Source: Escherichia coli
GTDB lineage: Bacteria; Pseudomonadota; Gammaproteobacteria; Enterobacterales; Enterobacteriaceae
NCBI RefSeq assembly: GCF_044324875.1
Contig: NZ_CP172185.1
Strand: one strand, 5' to 3'
Length of the DNA stretch: 64,000 nucleotides
The notes beneath the pieces were generated by a model. That model made no database searches, was not told where the DNA came from, and was given only the letters and a program-made list of their open reading frames with translations. Below, piece by piece: positions 4,740-55,118 of this stretch. Positions within the stretch are counted from its first letter, which is position 1. Every line of letters begins with the position of its first letter. The position numbers were made by a program, and so were the translations under genes.

Positions 4740-5111
4740 ATGCGTCTGGAATTTGTTTTGCCTTACCCGCCGCCGGTGAACACTTACTGGCACCGTCGTG
4801 GTGGTAAGTATTTTGTATCAAAAGCGGGGGAACGTTATCGTCGTGATGTCAGGCTTATTGTTCGCCAGCAGCAACTGAGATTAAGGCTGACCGGAAGACT
4901 GGGTATAAAAATCATCGCAGACCCGCCAGACAACCGCCGCCGTGACCTGGACAACATACTGAAAGTACCGCTGGATGCGCTGACCCATGCGGGGCTGCTT
5001 ATTGATGACGAACAGTTTGATGAAATTTATATCGTGCGTGGCGTGTCAGTACCTGACGGGCGTCTGGGAGTGAAGATTTACGAAATTACAGGTGGTAACA
5101 ATGGCGCGTGA
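4740..5111 (+). CDS. rusA: Holliday junction resolvase RusA
   Basis: 123 aa; RusA-like sequence with conserved acidic residues ([16 protein letters not shown]); RBS GGAAGGAGGGGA upstream. Confidence 0.85.
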
Positions 5112-5526
5112 TATTCAGCAGGTTATGGAGCGATGGGGGGCATGGGTGGCGAATAACCACGAAGACGTGGAATGGTCATCCATTGCCGCCGGATTCAAGG
5201 GGCTGATACCGTCAAAAGTAAAATCGCGACCGCAGTGTTCCGATGATGACGCGATGATTATCTGTGGTTGTATGGCTCAACTGAACCGGAACAACAGTGA
5301 TTTGCATGAATTGCTGGTTGATTACTACGTGTGTGGGATGACGCTGATGAAGTTAGCAAGGAAACATGGATGTTCTGATACGCATATTGGAAAGCGTTTG
5401 CAAAAAGCTGAAGGAGTGGTTGATGGCATGTTGATGATGCTGGGAGTAAGACTTGAGATGGATCGGTATGTGAGCGTAAATTATTCGATGTGCCGTAAAA
5501 CTCCGTCCTTCAGGGCAGGGATATAA
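5101..5526 (+). CDS. Late-gene antiterminator Q-like protein
   Basis: About 141 aa, directly upstream of the tRNA/lysis region; N-terminus [15 protein letters not shown] resembles the short Q type of Stx-family lambdoid phages as recalled; Cys-rich. Confidence 0.6.
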
Positions 5527-5536
5527 GGCGTACAGG

Positions 5537-5566
5537 ATAAATAAAAGAACGGGCGCAAAGCGCCCA
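5537..5566 (-). terminator. Rho-independent terminator for the opposite-strand porin gene
   Basis: Hairpin GGGCGCAAAGCGCCC followed on the minus strand by a T-rich run. Confidence 0.55.
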
Positions 5567-5709
5567 AGTATAAACAACAAAAAACGGTAATAAATAACAG
5601 AAAGTCCGTTGGAAAAGTTAAGTACTGTCCAACGTTTTGCAGTGGCATGAGGGCACCACTTTATATGTCAGAAAAGTTTCACTCTCCCGACATATTCTTA
5701 CAAAACAAA

Positions 5710-6813
5710 TCAGAACTGATAAGTCAAACCAACAGCGACAATATCATCGGTTAATACATCAGTTCTTTCAGTGAATTGATTCTTATCAAGCAGGTTGATT
5801 TTATAGTCTACGTATGTAGACATATTTTTGTTGAAGTAATAAGCAGCACCGACTTCAATGAATTTTTCAATGTATCCGTCATTATGTTTTTCAGGGATAC
5901 CAGTTTTGGTGGAAAGGTCTTTGGCTTTCGACTGGATATAAGCAAGAGACGGGCGCAAACCAAAGTCGAACTGATACTGTGCAACTACAGCGAAATCTTC
6001 AGTTTTATTGGCTACACCGTTGTAGCCGCCGGGCGAGTACTTGATTGCGCGGGTATTACGTGTTTCACCATAAGTGGCTGCCAGGTACAGATTATTCGCG
6101 TCATATTTTACGCTGGTAGCCCACTGTTCAGCTTTTTTACCTTTACCAAAAGTCGTCGCTTCCTGTGCATTGGTGCGATCGGCTGCACCATATGCAGCTA
6201 CAAAACCAAAGCCTTCATATTCATAACTGACAGAGCCGCCAACACCGTCGCCGTTTGAAGTGCCTGCATTGTCACGCTCATTTTTACCCAGATACTGAAC
6301 CGCAAAGTTCAGTCCATCAACCAGACCGAAGAAGTCGGTATTACGGTAAGTGGCAACACCACCTACACGACCCACGAAGAAGTTATCCCCGTTAACAGAA
6401 CCAGGCCCAAATTCAGGGAGGACATCAGTATAGCTTAATGCGTCATACACCACGCCATAGTTACGACCATAATCCAGAGAGCCAATATTTTCTAGTTTCA
6501 GGCCAGCGTATGCCAGACGGGTTTTGTCTCCTGCAGAGCCATCTTTTTCTGCCTTGTTGCCTTTGAATTCATATTCCCATTGACCAAAACCAGTTAACTG
6601 ATTGTTGATTTGGGTTTCACCTTTGAATCCAAGACGGGCATAAGTTCCATCACCTTCTTCTTTGGCGTTAGAAGAAAAGTAATGTTTACCCACTACTTTG
6701 CCATATAAATCCAGTTTATTACTGTTTTTATTATATATTTCTGCTGCATTTGCAGACATTGCCAGAAATACTGATGCTGCTACAGCAGAAAGTGCCACTG
6801 TTAAATTTTTCAT
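5710..6813 (-). CDS. Outer membrane porin (OmpC/NmpC family) moron
   Basis: Signal peptide [29 protein letters not shown], porin-type beta-strand composition, C-terminal aromatic residue; same position and orientation as nmpC in DLP12-type prophages. Confidence 0.85.
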
Positions 6814-7411
6814 TTTTTATCCTCTGGTGGGAGTTAATTGGACGACAAAATGCTATCAGGATGAAAATTTAATTTCTGTGTATAATGTATACAAGGAAAA
6901 TTAAGGAGTCCGATTCTTTATATGTGACCACCATCACAAAATAAGAAGTCATGCAAGCTAATAAATAGATGGCTATCTTTCACTCAAAAAATTAAGATCA
7001 ATCTTTTTTATTAGAAGTGCTAAATATATTTAATTATTTGGGGTTGTGAGTTATTTATATAACCTTAATAAAGACATTACTTTTGAAGAAAAATACGTGC
7101 ATAGAAGAATGCATAATCTTTAATTACATCTTGCCAAGCGTCGCAACAATCCAGAGATTGTATGTGGGGTGAATCATGCAGCATGCAGGGTATGAACAAA
7201 CACTTTACGATCGTAAAAGTATGCATATCATGGTAAGAGTGGTTCCTACGCCACACAACTTAAACCCGCAGCCAGGCGGTTTTTTACATCGAAAATCTGC
7301 ACCGGACATTAAGCTCTTTGGCGGACCAGATAAGAGGTGCGCTTAGTTGGGTTTGTCGGGCTTTCTCTGAGATTTGCGGTATTAATCCCGTAACGTTATT
7401 ATGCTGCTCGA

Positions 7412-7487
7412 GGCCCTTTAGCTCAGTGGTGAGAGCGAGCGACTCATAATCGCAAGGGCGCTGGTTCAAATTCAGCAAGGGCCACCA
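7412..7487 (+). tRNA. tRNA with anticodon CAU, ileX/ileZ-like (tRNA-Ile2 reading AUA, or Met)
   Basis: Cloverleaf folds by hand: acceptor GGCCCTT/AAGGGCC, D-arm GCTC..GAGC, anticodon loop CTCATAA, T-arm GCTGG-TTCAAAT-TCAGC, 3' CCA; close to recalled E. coli ileX. Confidence 0.85.
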
Positions 7488-7488
7488 A

Positions 7489-7565
7489 CCGCTACTAGCT
7501 CATCAGGAAAGAGCGTCAACCCTTTAAGTTGAGTGCGCTAGGTTCGATTCCCCGCTGGCGGTCCA
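7489..7565 (+). tRNA. tRNA-like element, probably degenerate (arg-tRNA-like architecture)
   Basis: Acceptor 6/7 bp, good D-arm and perfect anticodon stem, canonical T-loop TTCGATT, but T-stem has 2 mismatches and loop CCTTTAA lacks U33; ends CCA. Confidence 0.35.
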
Positions 7566-7980
7566 GCGCCGACTTACCTCAGTCGGCAGAACAGTTTAGT
7601 TGTAACCATCAGGCCACCACTTCAATTCCGGTAGTCGGCACTAAATTTCCAAGCTCGTGCTCACGGCCTGCTTCATATCCGCGCCAGGTCCGTCGCGATT
7701 AAACCACAGGGCTTTTCAGGAGGGGCCACAGAGAGCGTCACACTGACCATTCCCTGTGGCTTGTGCTGAGATCCGGTCAGTGAAATTGTGCAAAGGGAAT
7801 CTTCGGGAGCTTTGGGCAGAATGTCAGTTATTGATGTTGACATCCTCCACACCCTGAAGGTCGGGGTTTTACGGCGCACTGGATAAAATACCTGAACAAA
7901 CAGCCTCTTCGTGCGGCTTTTTTATAACGAGATTCTGACTTGCTGCCGTCCGTAATGTCGGATGGCGGAGGTGAGGGACT

Positions 7981-8253
7981 ATGAGAATGGACGAACGATA
8001 CAGTAACGCTGCATACGGCAGCGCAGGACTTGTTGCGTTCTTTGCCAGCCTGTCACTGCAGGATTGGGGATTTATTATCGGCGTGGCGTTCAGTATCATT
8101 CTTGGCGTTCTTACTTATCGCCTTAACAAACGGGAGCAGGAAAAACGAACCCGCATATTGCTCGAAATTCTGGAACGAACTAATGCCGGTAATGTTCCGG
8201 CTACGGCACATGCTGTGGCTGAGATTGCGAAAAAGGCACCAAAAGAAATATGA
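7981..8253 (+). CDS. Holin (two predicted transmembrane segments; dual-start MRM motif)
   Basis: 90 aa, hydrophobic stretches LVAFFASLSL and FIIGVAFSIILGVLTY, charged C-terminus; SD GGAGGTGAGGG; immediately upstream of lysis genes. Confidence 0.6.
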   Translation: MRMDERYSNAAYGSAGLVAFFASLSLQDWGFIIGVAFSIILGVLTYRLNKREQEKRTRILLEILERTNAGNVPATAHAVAEIAKKAPKEI

Positions 8254-8409
8254 CGAATATCCCGGGAGTGAGGGGATAATATACCTTTTAACAAAATCCG
8301 GGAACATGAAACGCCCGGAACGTTTCATGAGGCATGCCCCGTGGGGAGCAGGGCATAACTGTGCGGAATAGCTTTCATTGTGATATCAATAATCACGGTA
8401 TTCAAAATA

Positions 8410-8787
8410 TTACGGGCCTGTGGGATCAGGTTGTTTTTTGTCTGATTCCAGAGGGAAGGGACGCTGTTTCGGTTCTCTGAACTTTAGTGATAATGAATTG
8501 AAAATCCTCATTTTTTGCTGCCATGCATAATGTCTGTCCCATGAACAGGGGGGGCTCAATTCTTCATTCACCCATGCGTTAATATCTTGTTTCAGGTGTT
8601 GAAGCATACGGGGTGTTAATGCACTCATAATAATATCCAGCGTTTTATGCGAGAGTTTACCGTAAGGGTCTGCAAGGATGCTGCTCGTTGCTTCGTTATT
8701 ATCCACCATAAGTGGAAGTAGCGCTGATTTAACTTTTTCTGTCATTAGTTGCAAAAATCTACTGCGCAAATTTTCTTTACTGTTCAT
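8410..8787 (-). CDS. Hypothetical protein (125 aa) on opposite strand between holin and endolysin
   Basis: Clean ORF in an otherwise plus-strand late operon; no recognised domain. Confidence 0.45.
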   Translation of the reverse strand: MNSKENLRSRFLQLMTEKVKSALLPLMVDNNEATSSILADPYGKLSHKTLDIIMSALTPRMLQHLKQDINAWVNEELSPPCSWDRHYAWQQKMRIFNSLSLKFREPKQRPFPLESDKKQPDPTGP

Positions 8788-8910
8788 TTCTGAAGCCTCA
8801 TCTGTTGTCGTTTGGTTTTCCTGAACGGGTATGTTTATGAGACATGCTGGTACTGGATTATATACCTGATATATCCAGGATTATAAACCTTTAGATCCTG
8901 ATAAATATAC

Positions 8911-9444
8911 ATGAACGCAAAAATCAGATACGGCCTGTCGGCTGCCGTTCTGGCGCTGATTGGTGCTGGCGCATCTGCTCCTCAGATACTTGATCAGTTT
9001 CTGGACGAAAAAGAGGGTAACCACACAACGGCATACCGCGATGGGTCCGGCATCTGGACCATCTGTCGGGGTGCCACGATGGTGGATGGAAAACCCGTTT
9101 TTCCCGGAATGAAGCTGTCGAAGGAAAAATGCGACCAGGTTAACGCTATTGAACGTGATAAGGCACTGGCATGGGTGGAGCGCAATATTAAAGTACCTCT
9201 GACCGAACCACAGAAAGCGGGTATTGCGTCATTCTGTCCCTATAACATTGGCCCCGGTAAGTGTTTCCCGTCGACGTTTTATAAGCGGCTTAATGCCGGT
9301 GATCGAAAAGGCGCCTGCGAGGCGATTCGCTGGTGGATAAAGGATGGTGGGCGTGACTGCCGTATCCGTTCAAATAACTGCTATGGACAGGTTATTCGTC
9401 GTGACCAGGAAAGCGCATTAGCCTGTTGGGGGATAGATCAGTGA
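8911..9444 (+). CDS. Endolysin, lysozyme with N-terminal signal-anchor-release (SAR) domain
   Basis: 177 aa; N-terminal hydrophobic [16 protein letters not shown]-x8-D-x5-T catalytic spacing ([16 protein letters not shown]). Confidence 0.85.
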
Positions 9445-10108: not shown

Positions 10109-10540
10109 TGCCATTACAAAAGCCACTCCCTACAGAGTGGCTTTGATAATGGCTTATACCCTACACGGGATAACTTAACTGATATCCCTTTTAACGGATA
10201 AAGGTATTCAAGCCTGACACATCATGCGCTGTATCGTCGCTGTATTCCCGCATTAACCATGACCGTAGCCCGACGGGGAACTCCTTCTGCGCGAGTGTGC
10301 GGGAATAATCAAAAACGATGCACACCGGGTTTTTACCGCGCTAATGATTCGCGGGTTTGTCCCTCATGCTCGCCAGTCCGGTGCGATGGTGGAAGAAACC
10401 GGAAGCTGTATTACAGAAAGTGCTACTACTGTATCCTGATGCGATGTATGTAATGTGAGTCAGATAATGGCACAGGATGTGGTGATGTGGCAGTCTGGAA
10501 CACAGGATATATTGTCAGAATAAGACCCGTAGGAATAAAA

Positions 10541-10867
10541 ATGAAAAGACGCCTTTCACTACTTTTTCTGTTATCTGCCCTGGCAGTGGGATGCTCGCAG
10601 CAAAAAGCTGATGAGCCCCGGCAATTAGTGACGGTGTATCCACGATATCCGGAATATGCTGCAGCAAATTATATCAAGGGGCTGGTTGAGGTTAAGTTCG
10701 ATATTGGTGCTGACGGGACTGTGACACGGATCGTTTTTCTCCGCTCAGAGCCTCATAATTTGTTTCGTGATGAAGTGGTGAAGGCCATGGCGAAATGGAG
10801 ATTTGAAAAGAATAGTCCCCGTCAGGGAGTGAAGAGACAATTTATCTTTACGCCATCACGTCCCTGA
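10541..10867 (+). CDS. Lipoprotein with TonB C-terminal-like domain (moron)
   Basis: Signal/lipobox MKRRLSLLFLLSALAVGC; C-terminal region GLVEVKFDIGADGTVTRIVFLRSEPHNLFRDEVVKAMAKWRFE matches the TonB C-terminal pattern (compare E. coli TonB GQVKVKFDVTPDGRVDNVQIL...FEREVKNAMRRWRYE). Confidence 0.6.
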   Translation: MKRRLSLLFLLSALAVGCSQQKADEPRQLVTVYPRYPEYAAANYIKGLVEVKFDIGADGTVTRIVFLRSEPHNLFRDEVVKAMAKWRFEKNSPRQGVKRQFIFTPSRP

Positions 10868-54078: not shown

Positions 54079-54510
54079 ATATTCATCCCTGAAATGTATT
54101 AATGAAATAAACGATATTTTACGCGCAATAAATGTTTGCCGCATTAGTTGTTTGAGCGAAAAATATCTGGAAAGCAGATCACAGTACATAAAAAAACCTG
54201 CTGGTGAGGCAGGTTCTTTTATTTACTATTTTCAGGCCCAACACCGCAGCCTGTGCAACATCGTGTTCCAACGAACGAATTATAACCATCGGTGGACCCC
54301 GTTGCAATTAAGATAATGAGATTTATAATCCAGACGGTTGGGACGTTGCGCCGGATCGGACCAATTTTAAGTCCTGGCTACCGGACGGGTGGTGCTGCAG
54401 GTGGTGCCCTGATCCGGAGTGCAACATCGTGGTCCAACATACGTAAACCAGTATCGACAGGCAGTGTAAGGGTAAGGTGCTGGTGTTGCGCTCCTTAATA
54501 AGGAGAGCGA

Positions 54511-54600: not shown

Positions 54601-55118
54601 CGGGCAAATTGAAACGCATCTAAGGGGGAAAACCGCTTCCCCCTTTAATAAAATGATTACTGTTTTTATTAATTCATCATATAACTCATTTTTATTTATA
54701 AATTCATCGATTTTATATTCAACGTACCGTTTAACCGGGATGTGAATATTTATGGTGGGCTATTGGCAAAAAATATCTGGAAAGTAGATCGCAGAAAATA
54801 AAAAAACCTGCTGGTGAGGCAGGTTCTTTTATTTACTACTTTGATGTTAAGTTACTGATAGTGCAACATGGCATCTCAACGAACGAATTATAACCACCTC
54901 TGGACAGTGTTGCAATTAAGATAATGAGATTTATAATCCTGACTGTTGGGAAGTTGCGCCGGATCGAACCCATTTCAAGTCCTGGCTACCGGACGGGTGG
55001 TGCCGCAGGTAGTGCTCTGATCCGGAGTGCAACATGGCGACTCAACATACGTAAACCAGTATCGACAGGCAGCGTAAGGGTAAGGTGCTGGTGTTGCGCT
55101 CCTTAATAAGGAGAGCGG

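Follow-up and report, generated by a model that had tools for sequence, protein, structure and literature searches.

A probable mosaic lambdoid late-gene control region in Escherichia coli, combining a porin cassette with a toxin-less tRNA island

What does a prophage carry between its antiterminator gene and its lysis genes when no toxin is found there? The question is raised by positions 5101-8253 of a 64,000-nt stretch of Escherichia coli DNA (contig NZ_CP172185.1; the whole stretch is referred to below as the window), where a Q gene, a porin gene on the opposite strand, a tRNA with a CAU anticodon, and a holin gene follow one another. An original prediction, made from the sequence, saw in this order a likeness to both DLP12-type prophages and Shiga toxin (Stx)-converting phages, with the toxin position empty and a porin gene present instead. 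The order is borne out, and the prediction proves largely correct. The locus very probably belongs to a mosaic lambdoid prophage in the E. coli chromosome, as its late-gene control region, and consists of four modules; in its right part, the window matches the yeh region of many E. coli strains at 99% identity. The modules are well known, and the region joins them in an ordinary mosaic: a DLP12/PA-2-type porin cassette with a toxin-less Stx-phage-type tRNA island. The locus is a new allele and a new mosaic of a well-known type that public genomes already contain in annotated form. The locus is not an Stx phage: tests for stxAB, nanS-p, and Stx-type lysis genes showed all of them to be absent. 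Gene identities, homologies, and positions were established directly in this analysis.

The Q antiterminator gene (5101-5526, + strand) encodes 141 residues from the ATG at 5101, in an open reading frame (ORF) that opens at a GTG at 5092. The protein matches Pfam PF06530 (Phage_antitermQ, 7e-52) over residues 6-122, phrog_79 (6e-52), and the Q21 structures 6p18/6jnx (E = 2.5e-8). It shares 74% amino acid identity with Q of the Stx2a phage WGPS8 (AP012540), which served as our Stx2 reference; its locus is labelled L002, and coordinates so marked refer to that locus. On these matches, we assign the protein to the Q21/QuuD/Q933W family. At the DNA level, comparison with this reference shows that the late region is indeed related to Stx phages, in three blocks: Q (window 5106-5482 = L002 4169-4546, 78% identity), a promoter segment (7194-7285 = L002 4579-4669, 77% homologous), and the tRNAs (7374-7701 = L002 5005-5357). 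Between the first and second of these blocks, the window has 1.7 kb (5483-7193) in place of the 32 nt of the Stx2 phage.

The second block corresponds to the late promoter pR' of the Stx phage, which there overlaps the Q stop codon. A promoter scan and homology both place it in the window at 7204-7231 on the + strand (TTTACG-16-TATCAT). Its -35 and -10 hexamers are conserved, and the -35 hexamer is overlapped by a 14-bp palindrome, TTTACGATCGTAAA. The same block lies 5' of essD in DLP12, where window 7204-7289 matches, and in PA-2 it is found between lc and the lysis genes. By homology, then, 7204-7231 is identified as the cognate late promoter 5' of the lysis genes. It is followed on the + strand by a leader hairpin with a U6 tract (7266-7285), a candidate for the first terminator that Q would override.

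What fills the 1.7 kb is a general porin gene of 367 codons on the minus strand (5710-6813), and the closest known layout is that of DLP12 (qsr') of K-12: quuD, nmpC/ipeX on the opposite strand, pR', then essD rrrD rzpD; lc of PA-2 is the same module. DLP12 and PA-2 share with the window the gene order and orientation, the Q family, and the position of a porin cassette between Q and a conserved pR'. They also share a homologous porin 3' untranslated region (3'UTR; the IpeX region), the N-terminal third of the porin, and an AT-rich upstream segment of ~380 nt. DLP12 matches the window over 5106-6813 and 7204-7289, with no significant match in the porin upstream segment 6814-7203, and the Q-porin-pR' span of PhiR49_1 aligns over the whole of 5106-7289. 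Judged by these alignments, the layout is the classical DLP12/PA-2 arrangement and not a recent insertion. There are differences as well: in DLP12 and PA-2, pR' leads almost directly to the holin, whereas the window interposes a tRNA island and filler. The DLP12 holin is of class II and that of the window belongs to phrog_1350. Their porins are ~63% identical to that of the window, whose middle third is OmpF-like and whose C-terminal third is divergent.

The position of the porin gene bears on how the original prediction is to be read, as it had the porin stand in place of the toxin. The porin lies in a separate slot 5' of pR', and the toxin slot is occupied by 266 nt of non-coding filler. One could still take the porin for late-operon cargo, expressed on induction like stx and acting as a functional substitute for the toxin, and in terms of gene order it shares with stx a place after Q and before the lysis genes. 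Its orientation argues otherwise: the gene is on the opposite strand and 5' of the conserved pR', which puts the cassette outside the late operon. In addition, it has its own ribosome-binding site (RBS), terminator, and CRP site, and in DLP12/PA-2 the homologues are part of the porin's own transcription unit (PMC12197685). We regard the late-cargo explanation as highly improbable. Like nmpC in DLP12 and lc in PA-2, the porin cassette sits, on its sequence context, between Q and pR' and outside the late operon.

The signals around the gene describe a self-contained unit, and here the terminator and RBS of the original prediction are found on the minus strand as described. The RBS, AGAGGA (6825-6820), lies 6 nt 5' of the ATG, and an intrinsic terminator hairpin (5566-5550; -11.9 kcal/mol, z = -3.1) closes a 3'UTR of ~165 nt (5545-5709). 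The upstream region (6814-7190) is AT-rich, with 27-32% GC, and the gene itself has 43% GC vs about 50-57% for phage genes. Within the upstream region, at 6923-6938, is a perfect palindromic CRP core, TGTGACCACCATCACA (TGTGA-N6-TCACA). It is the sole match in the 64-kb window, where 0.07 are expected, and PA-2 lc has annotated CRP sites in the corresponding region. With its terminator, CRP site, RBS, and distinct composition, the cassette has the anatomy of an autonomous unit, or moron; its promoter hexamers are a weak match. As an autonomous transcription unit, it is predicted to be expressed in the lysogen and not on induction, so that porin expression would be independent of induction.

The 3'UTR is a homologue of that of nmpC and lc. 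In DLP12, the nmpC 3'UTR gives rise to IpeX, a 167-nt small RNA made from the phage porin transcript that lowers OmpC/OmpF (PMC12197685; PMC3617542). An alignment of the window 3'UTR with those of DLP12, PA-2, PhiR49_1, and AF10 shows two conserved hairpins with compensatory changes, 3 pairs being altered on both sides. A Rfam scan of 5400-9000 at E <= 1 returned two tRNAs and noise alone, with no match to IpeX or StxS. A + strand hairpin at 5607-5634 was considered as a terminator for Q and rejected; on the minus strand, it makes better sense as the third of the porin 3'UTR hairpins.

How such a region might work can be sketched from its parts. Promoter use, Q action, expression of the porin and of an IpeX-like RNA, and any phenotype are predictions from sequence. 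In a lysogen, the porin unit would probably be transcribed from its own CRP-influenced promoter. Its transcript would yield a variant porin together with an IpeX-like RNA that reduces host OmpC/OmpF. The porin repertoire of the cell would change, and with it, presumably, the phage-receptor and permeability profile. OmpC is the receptor of phage PA-2, and such a change of porins would follow the logic of superinfection exclusion. The tRNAs would likewise be transcribed in the lysogen, from a promoter of their own. On induction, by analogy, Q would load onto RNA polymerase at pR', and the modified polymerase would read past the leader hairpin, across the tRNAs and filler, and on into the holin, the other lysis genes, and the structural genes.

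What kind of porin does the cassette encode? Among NCBIfam models, the protein scores 520, 461, and 437 bits against OmpF, OmpC, and PhoE, all under the model cut-offs, and its best match among solved structures in the PDB is OmpF (482 bits). The identities change along the chain. Residues 1-110, signal peptide included, resemble NmpC-type phage porins (~80% identity); residues 111-260 resemble E. coli OmpF (again ~80%); and residues 261-367 reach ~65% identity to anything outside the nearest cluster, represented by the porin P0002 (79% identical overall), which is encoded on a Logan contig (L014) with the same flanks. The gene is thus a mosaic of an NmpC-type N-terminal third, an OmpF-like middle third, and a divergent C-terminal third, and by this measure the protein is not an NmpC/Lc orthologue; just its N-terminal third is NmpC-type. 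NCBI already lists a protein of 100% identity, 'porin [Escherichia coli]', encoded on 203 contigs. No Stx phage is among the phage records with a porin homologue.

This structure raises the possibility, which we advance tentatively, that the prophage porin is an old hybrid of a phage NmpC-type porin and chromosomal OmpF. Porin genes might then act as bridges for recombination between prophages and ompF, and the cassette as a vehicle that reshuffles host porins. The reading is supported by exact phage-ompF chimeras in other genomes. In E. coli GCA_002416955.1 and GCA_902848325.1, the chromosomal ompF locus, which adjoins aspC, ycbL, ycbK, and ldtD, carries a chimeric porin gene (examined at L010 3209-5074 and L012/L013 3000-5077). 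Its first ~535 nt, together with the upstream pR', holin, lysozyme, and Rz, are ~95% identical to PhiR49_1 DNA; the N-terminal ~120 encoded residues are identical to the PhiR49_1 porin, and over the remainder of the protein, 40-residue windows show ~88-100% identity to OmpF. Such a chimera, preceded by a lambdoid lysis cassette, implies that a prophage porin gene and ompF have recombined, perhaps through an inversion.

Downstream of pR', the relationship to Stx2 phages takes over. In phages of the 933W/Sakai type, the order is Q, pR'/StxS, ileZ argN argO, stx2AB, nanS-p, and S R Rz. Besides its Q and pR', the window has homologues of their tRNA promoter and of their three-slot tRNA island, the latter preserved in part. 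In contrast, it lacks stxAB and nanS-p, has a porin cassette between Q and pR', and carries unrelated lysis genes. The StxS_S part of the Stx2 leader has no homologue in the window, where the distance from the hairpin to the tRNA promoter is 88 nt vs 335 nt. Directly 5' of the tRNAs is a sigma-70-like promoter on the + strand (TTGCGG-17-TATTAT, 7374-7402) that is conserved with the Stx2 phage; at the corresponding promoter in an Stx phage, a primary transcription start site driving the tRNAs has been mapped (PMC7547250).

All three slots of the island are on the + strand, and the ileZ-like one alone is well preserved. It holds a tRNA with anticodon CAU (7412-7487), called by ARAGORN and by Rfam at 67.8 bits, that aligns to ileZ (tRNA-Ile2) and is labelled tRNA-Ile in relatives by the Prokaryotic Genome Annotation Pipeline (PGAP). 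The argN slot holds a tRNA-Lys(UUU) (7489-7565; ARAGORN, Rfam) that is homologous to argN and has two mismatches in the T stem. The argO slot is taken by a decayed tRNA-Thr(UGU) pseudogene (7568-7643), recognized from its alignment with argO and with the tRNA-Thr(UGU) that is intact in E. coli ESBL15; it gives no ARAGORN call, no Rfam match at E <= 1, and no cloverleaf fold. In these terms, the tRNA cluster of the original prediction stands for the CAU tRNA; the tRNA-Lys, the decayed third tRNA, and pR' had been overlooked.

In slot 2, different prophages carry clearly homologous tRNAs that differ in anticodon. The Stx2 phage has UCG and strain 135 has UCU, both for Arg; the window and ESBL15 have UUU (Lys). 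The positions compared are window 7489-7565, L002 5126-5202, L006 4078-4154, and L005 4078-4154, and matching changes are seen in the anticodon stem. A link between the tRNAs and codon usage was considered and dropped, since the codons AUA, AAA, and ACA show no clear enrichment in the porin and late genes over the host genes of the window. A literature search on ileZ/argN/argO returned nothing relevant.

Between the tRNAs and the holin is the position that stx occupies in Stx2 phages. Here, homology to the Stx2 phage stops at 7701, which corresponds to 27 nt before the stx2A start, and homology to the phages that share the holin starts at 7968. The 266 nt between these two breakpoints (7702-7967) are non-coding. 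The claim that 7641-7980 has no toxin ORF is confirmed: no + strand ORF in 7642-7980 exceeds 33 residues, and those present are all GTG-started. A tblastn search of Stx2A/B against the whole window gave a best E of 0.25, located elsewhere in the window, and a sensitive blastn search with the Stx2 cargo DNA (L002 5358-10202: stx2AB, nanS-p, and the start of the holin gene) gave no match. By both methods, there are no stx or nanS-p remnants in the window. The filler contains a weak hairpin with a U6 tract (7902-7924) and a segment (7835-7888) of a dispersed repeat. Among 5426 complete E. coli genomes, just 19 have the full filler, whereas 4825 have the repeat segment, which often adjoins an IS200/IS605 tnpA or tnpB gene.

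The abrupt end of Stx2 homology 27 nt before stx2A, the transposon-end-like repeat inside the filler, and the presence of a tolA-like gene and nanS-p in the same slot of the relative AF10 could all be taken as signs that the prophage formerly carried stx or other cargo between its tRNAs and holin, and that the filler is the scar of its deletion. Against this, no remnant of stxA, stxB, nanS-p, or their flanks is in the window, and the filler is the same in all 19 genomes with the junction. Modular phage exchange accounts for the breakpoints equally well, and the data fit a slot that never held cargo as they fit one that lost it. We consider a past deletion improbable.

A second copy of the repeat (5481-5530, 50 nt, + strand) lies at the Q junction. 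It begins exactly at the end of the Stx phage Q homology (5482) and supplies the last codons and the stop of Q. This copy is 86% identical to the sequence just 5' of a TnpB gene on plasmid pTB422, and it is inverted relative to the copy at 7835-7888. The 24-nt inverted pair within the two copies (5492-5515/7852-7875) was considered as the ends of a mobile porin-tRNA cassette. This candidate was rejected: IS200/IS605 ends need direct orientation, the pair is inverted, and the window has no tnpA/tnpB (transposase) genes. The pair belongs to two copies of an IS200/IS605-end-like dispersed repeat. The two copies, one at the Q junction and one inside the empty toxin slot, may mark the way in which cargo sites are remodelled.

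The lysis cassette opens with a holin gene of 90 codons (7981-8253, + strand; phrog_1350, 3e-29). The protein is 77-78% identical to the holins of Salmonella phage UPF_BP1 (genus Lederbergvirus) and Escherichia phage PhiR46_1; the closest holins in the phage collection come from Salmonella phages UPF_BP1 and 29485 and Escherichia phages PhiR46_1 and YDC107_1. The Stx2 phage has no DNA match to window 7601-8900, and the cassette is, on these comparisons, unrelated to Stx-type lysis genes. The proposed likeness to DLP12 and Stx phages stands for Q, pR', the tRNAs, and the Q-porin-pR' module; the lysis genes are not Stx-like. Past the holin come a minus-strand ORF (8410-8787) and then the genes for an endolysin of the lysozyme family (phrog_7), whose N-terminus is hydrophobic, for Rz/Rz1, and for a TonB_C lipoprotein. 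The minus-strand ORF encodes 125 residues (phrog_1853, function not known) and, with its flanks, puts 657 nt between the holin and endolysin genes, which abut in phages with the same holin. Its counterpart is an annotated pseudogene in strains Ch1 and 135.

Several observations weigh against a working late-control region with a DLP12/PA-2-type porin unit. In the porin cassette, a convincing promoter was not located, the sole minus-strand hit of the promoter scan (7050-7023) agreeing with the consensus at 9 of 12 positions. The third hairpin of the 3'UTR, next to the terminator, is analogous to that of DLP12/PA-2 and has another sequence, and the porin is ~63% identical overall to Lc/NmpC-type phage porins; with a porin this divergent and a differing third hairpin, IpeX-like activity is not assured. 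On the late-promoter side, the leader hairpin at 7266-7285 has -6.1 kcal/mol vs -12.7 in the Stx2 phage and -12.0 in DLP12, and between pR' and the holin the terminator scan gave no strong candidate on the + strand. Given these two points, control of the late genes by Q might be leaky, or the prophage might be in decay. Among the tRNAs, the tRNA-Lys barely passes in Rfam (31.2 bits vs a gathering score of 29), and the third, stripped of its D, anticodon, and T stems and of its CCA end, is dead. The leader hairpin has one G-C pair fewer than in DLP12 and Stx2 phages, as it does in strain Ch1.

These weaknesses invite a more radical explanation: that the late region is a decaying, non-functional remnant in which the Q/pR' switch and the tRNAs are dead and the porin cassette alone is maintained. 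The weakened leader hairpin, the marginal tRNA-Lys, and the dead tRNA-Thr agree with it, as do the extra minus-strand ORF that splits holin from endolysin and the frameshifts in the terminase or the extra ORF of relatives; DLP12, a defective prophage that keeps its Q-porin module, provides a precedent. Yet Q, the holin, the endolysin, Rz/Rz1, and the large structural ORFs are intact in the window, the pR' hexamers are conserved, and the ileZ-like tRNA scores well. On balance, we hold a dead remnant to be unlikely, and favour a late-gene control region of a mosaic lambdoid prophage.

Relatives in public genomes illustrate how such regions vary. Three complete E. coli genomes, Ch1, LH50-c, and CP033635, all from chicken isolates, have an identical Q-porin-tRNA-holin architecture, with 91-93% DNA identity to the window and >99% from the tRNAs to the endolysin. 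The porin gene of the Ch1 type is a diverged allele, the region being about 91% identical overall. AF10 has the same replication module and, like the window, a porin and a tRNA island together, in the order QuuD, NmpC-type porin, tRNAs, tolA-like gene, nanS-p, and holin, with cargo in the stx slot. There, the gene annotated 'TolA' (142 aa, L009 8818-9246) lies exactly in the stx position, between a tRNA-Arg and nanS-p, and the QuuD-porin module upstream of it is interrupted by IS1. ESBL15 has three unknown minus-strand ORFs in the porin slot between Q and four tRNAs, followed by the holin, and its Thr and Gly tRNAs are intact. Strain 135 has another Q and a tRNA-Arg(UCU) in slot 2; its filler and holin are the same as in the window.

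Together, these arrangements describe two separate cargo slots in lambdoid late regions, the gap from Q to pR' and the gap from the tRNAs to the holin, and the value of recognizing them lies mainly in correct annotation. A porin cassette placed in the first slot is expected to be active in the lysogen and not on induction. If the porin and the IpeX-like 3'UTR were active, the prophage would alter the outer-membrane permeability of its host and its display of phage receptors. The hybrid nature of the porin and the phage-ompF chimeras suggest that prophages feed porin allele diversity, which bears on antibiotic uptake and phage therapy. Nothing here is surprising to a specialist.

Other features of the window lie outside the late-control region. 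A RusA gene is upstream of the Q region. The gene 3' of Rz/Rz1 (10487-10867, + strand) encodes 126 residues with a TonB C-terminal domain (TIGR01352, 1e-12), roughly in the bor position of other lambdoids; it is also present in relatives, and its PHROGs family label, 'Rz-like spanin', looks like a mis-annotation. Towards the right end of the prophage, a run of three consecutive ORFs on the minus strand (38287-40620; 512, 115, and 133 residues) resembles in its arrangement an IS66-family element, as judged by ORF sizes alone. In the chromosomal part of the window, on the minus strand, are two OrzO-P antitoxin small RNA genes (54190-54265 and 54800-54873; RF02083, 101 and 92 bits), which indicate a tandem zor-orz type I toxin-antitoxin locus.

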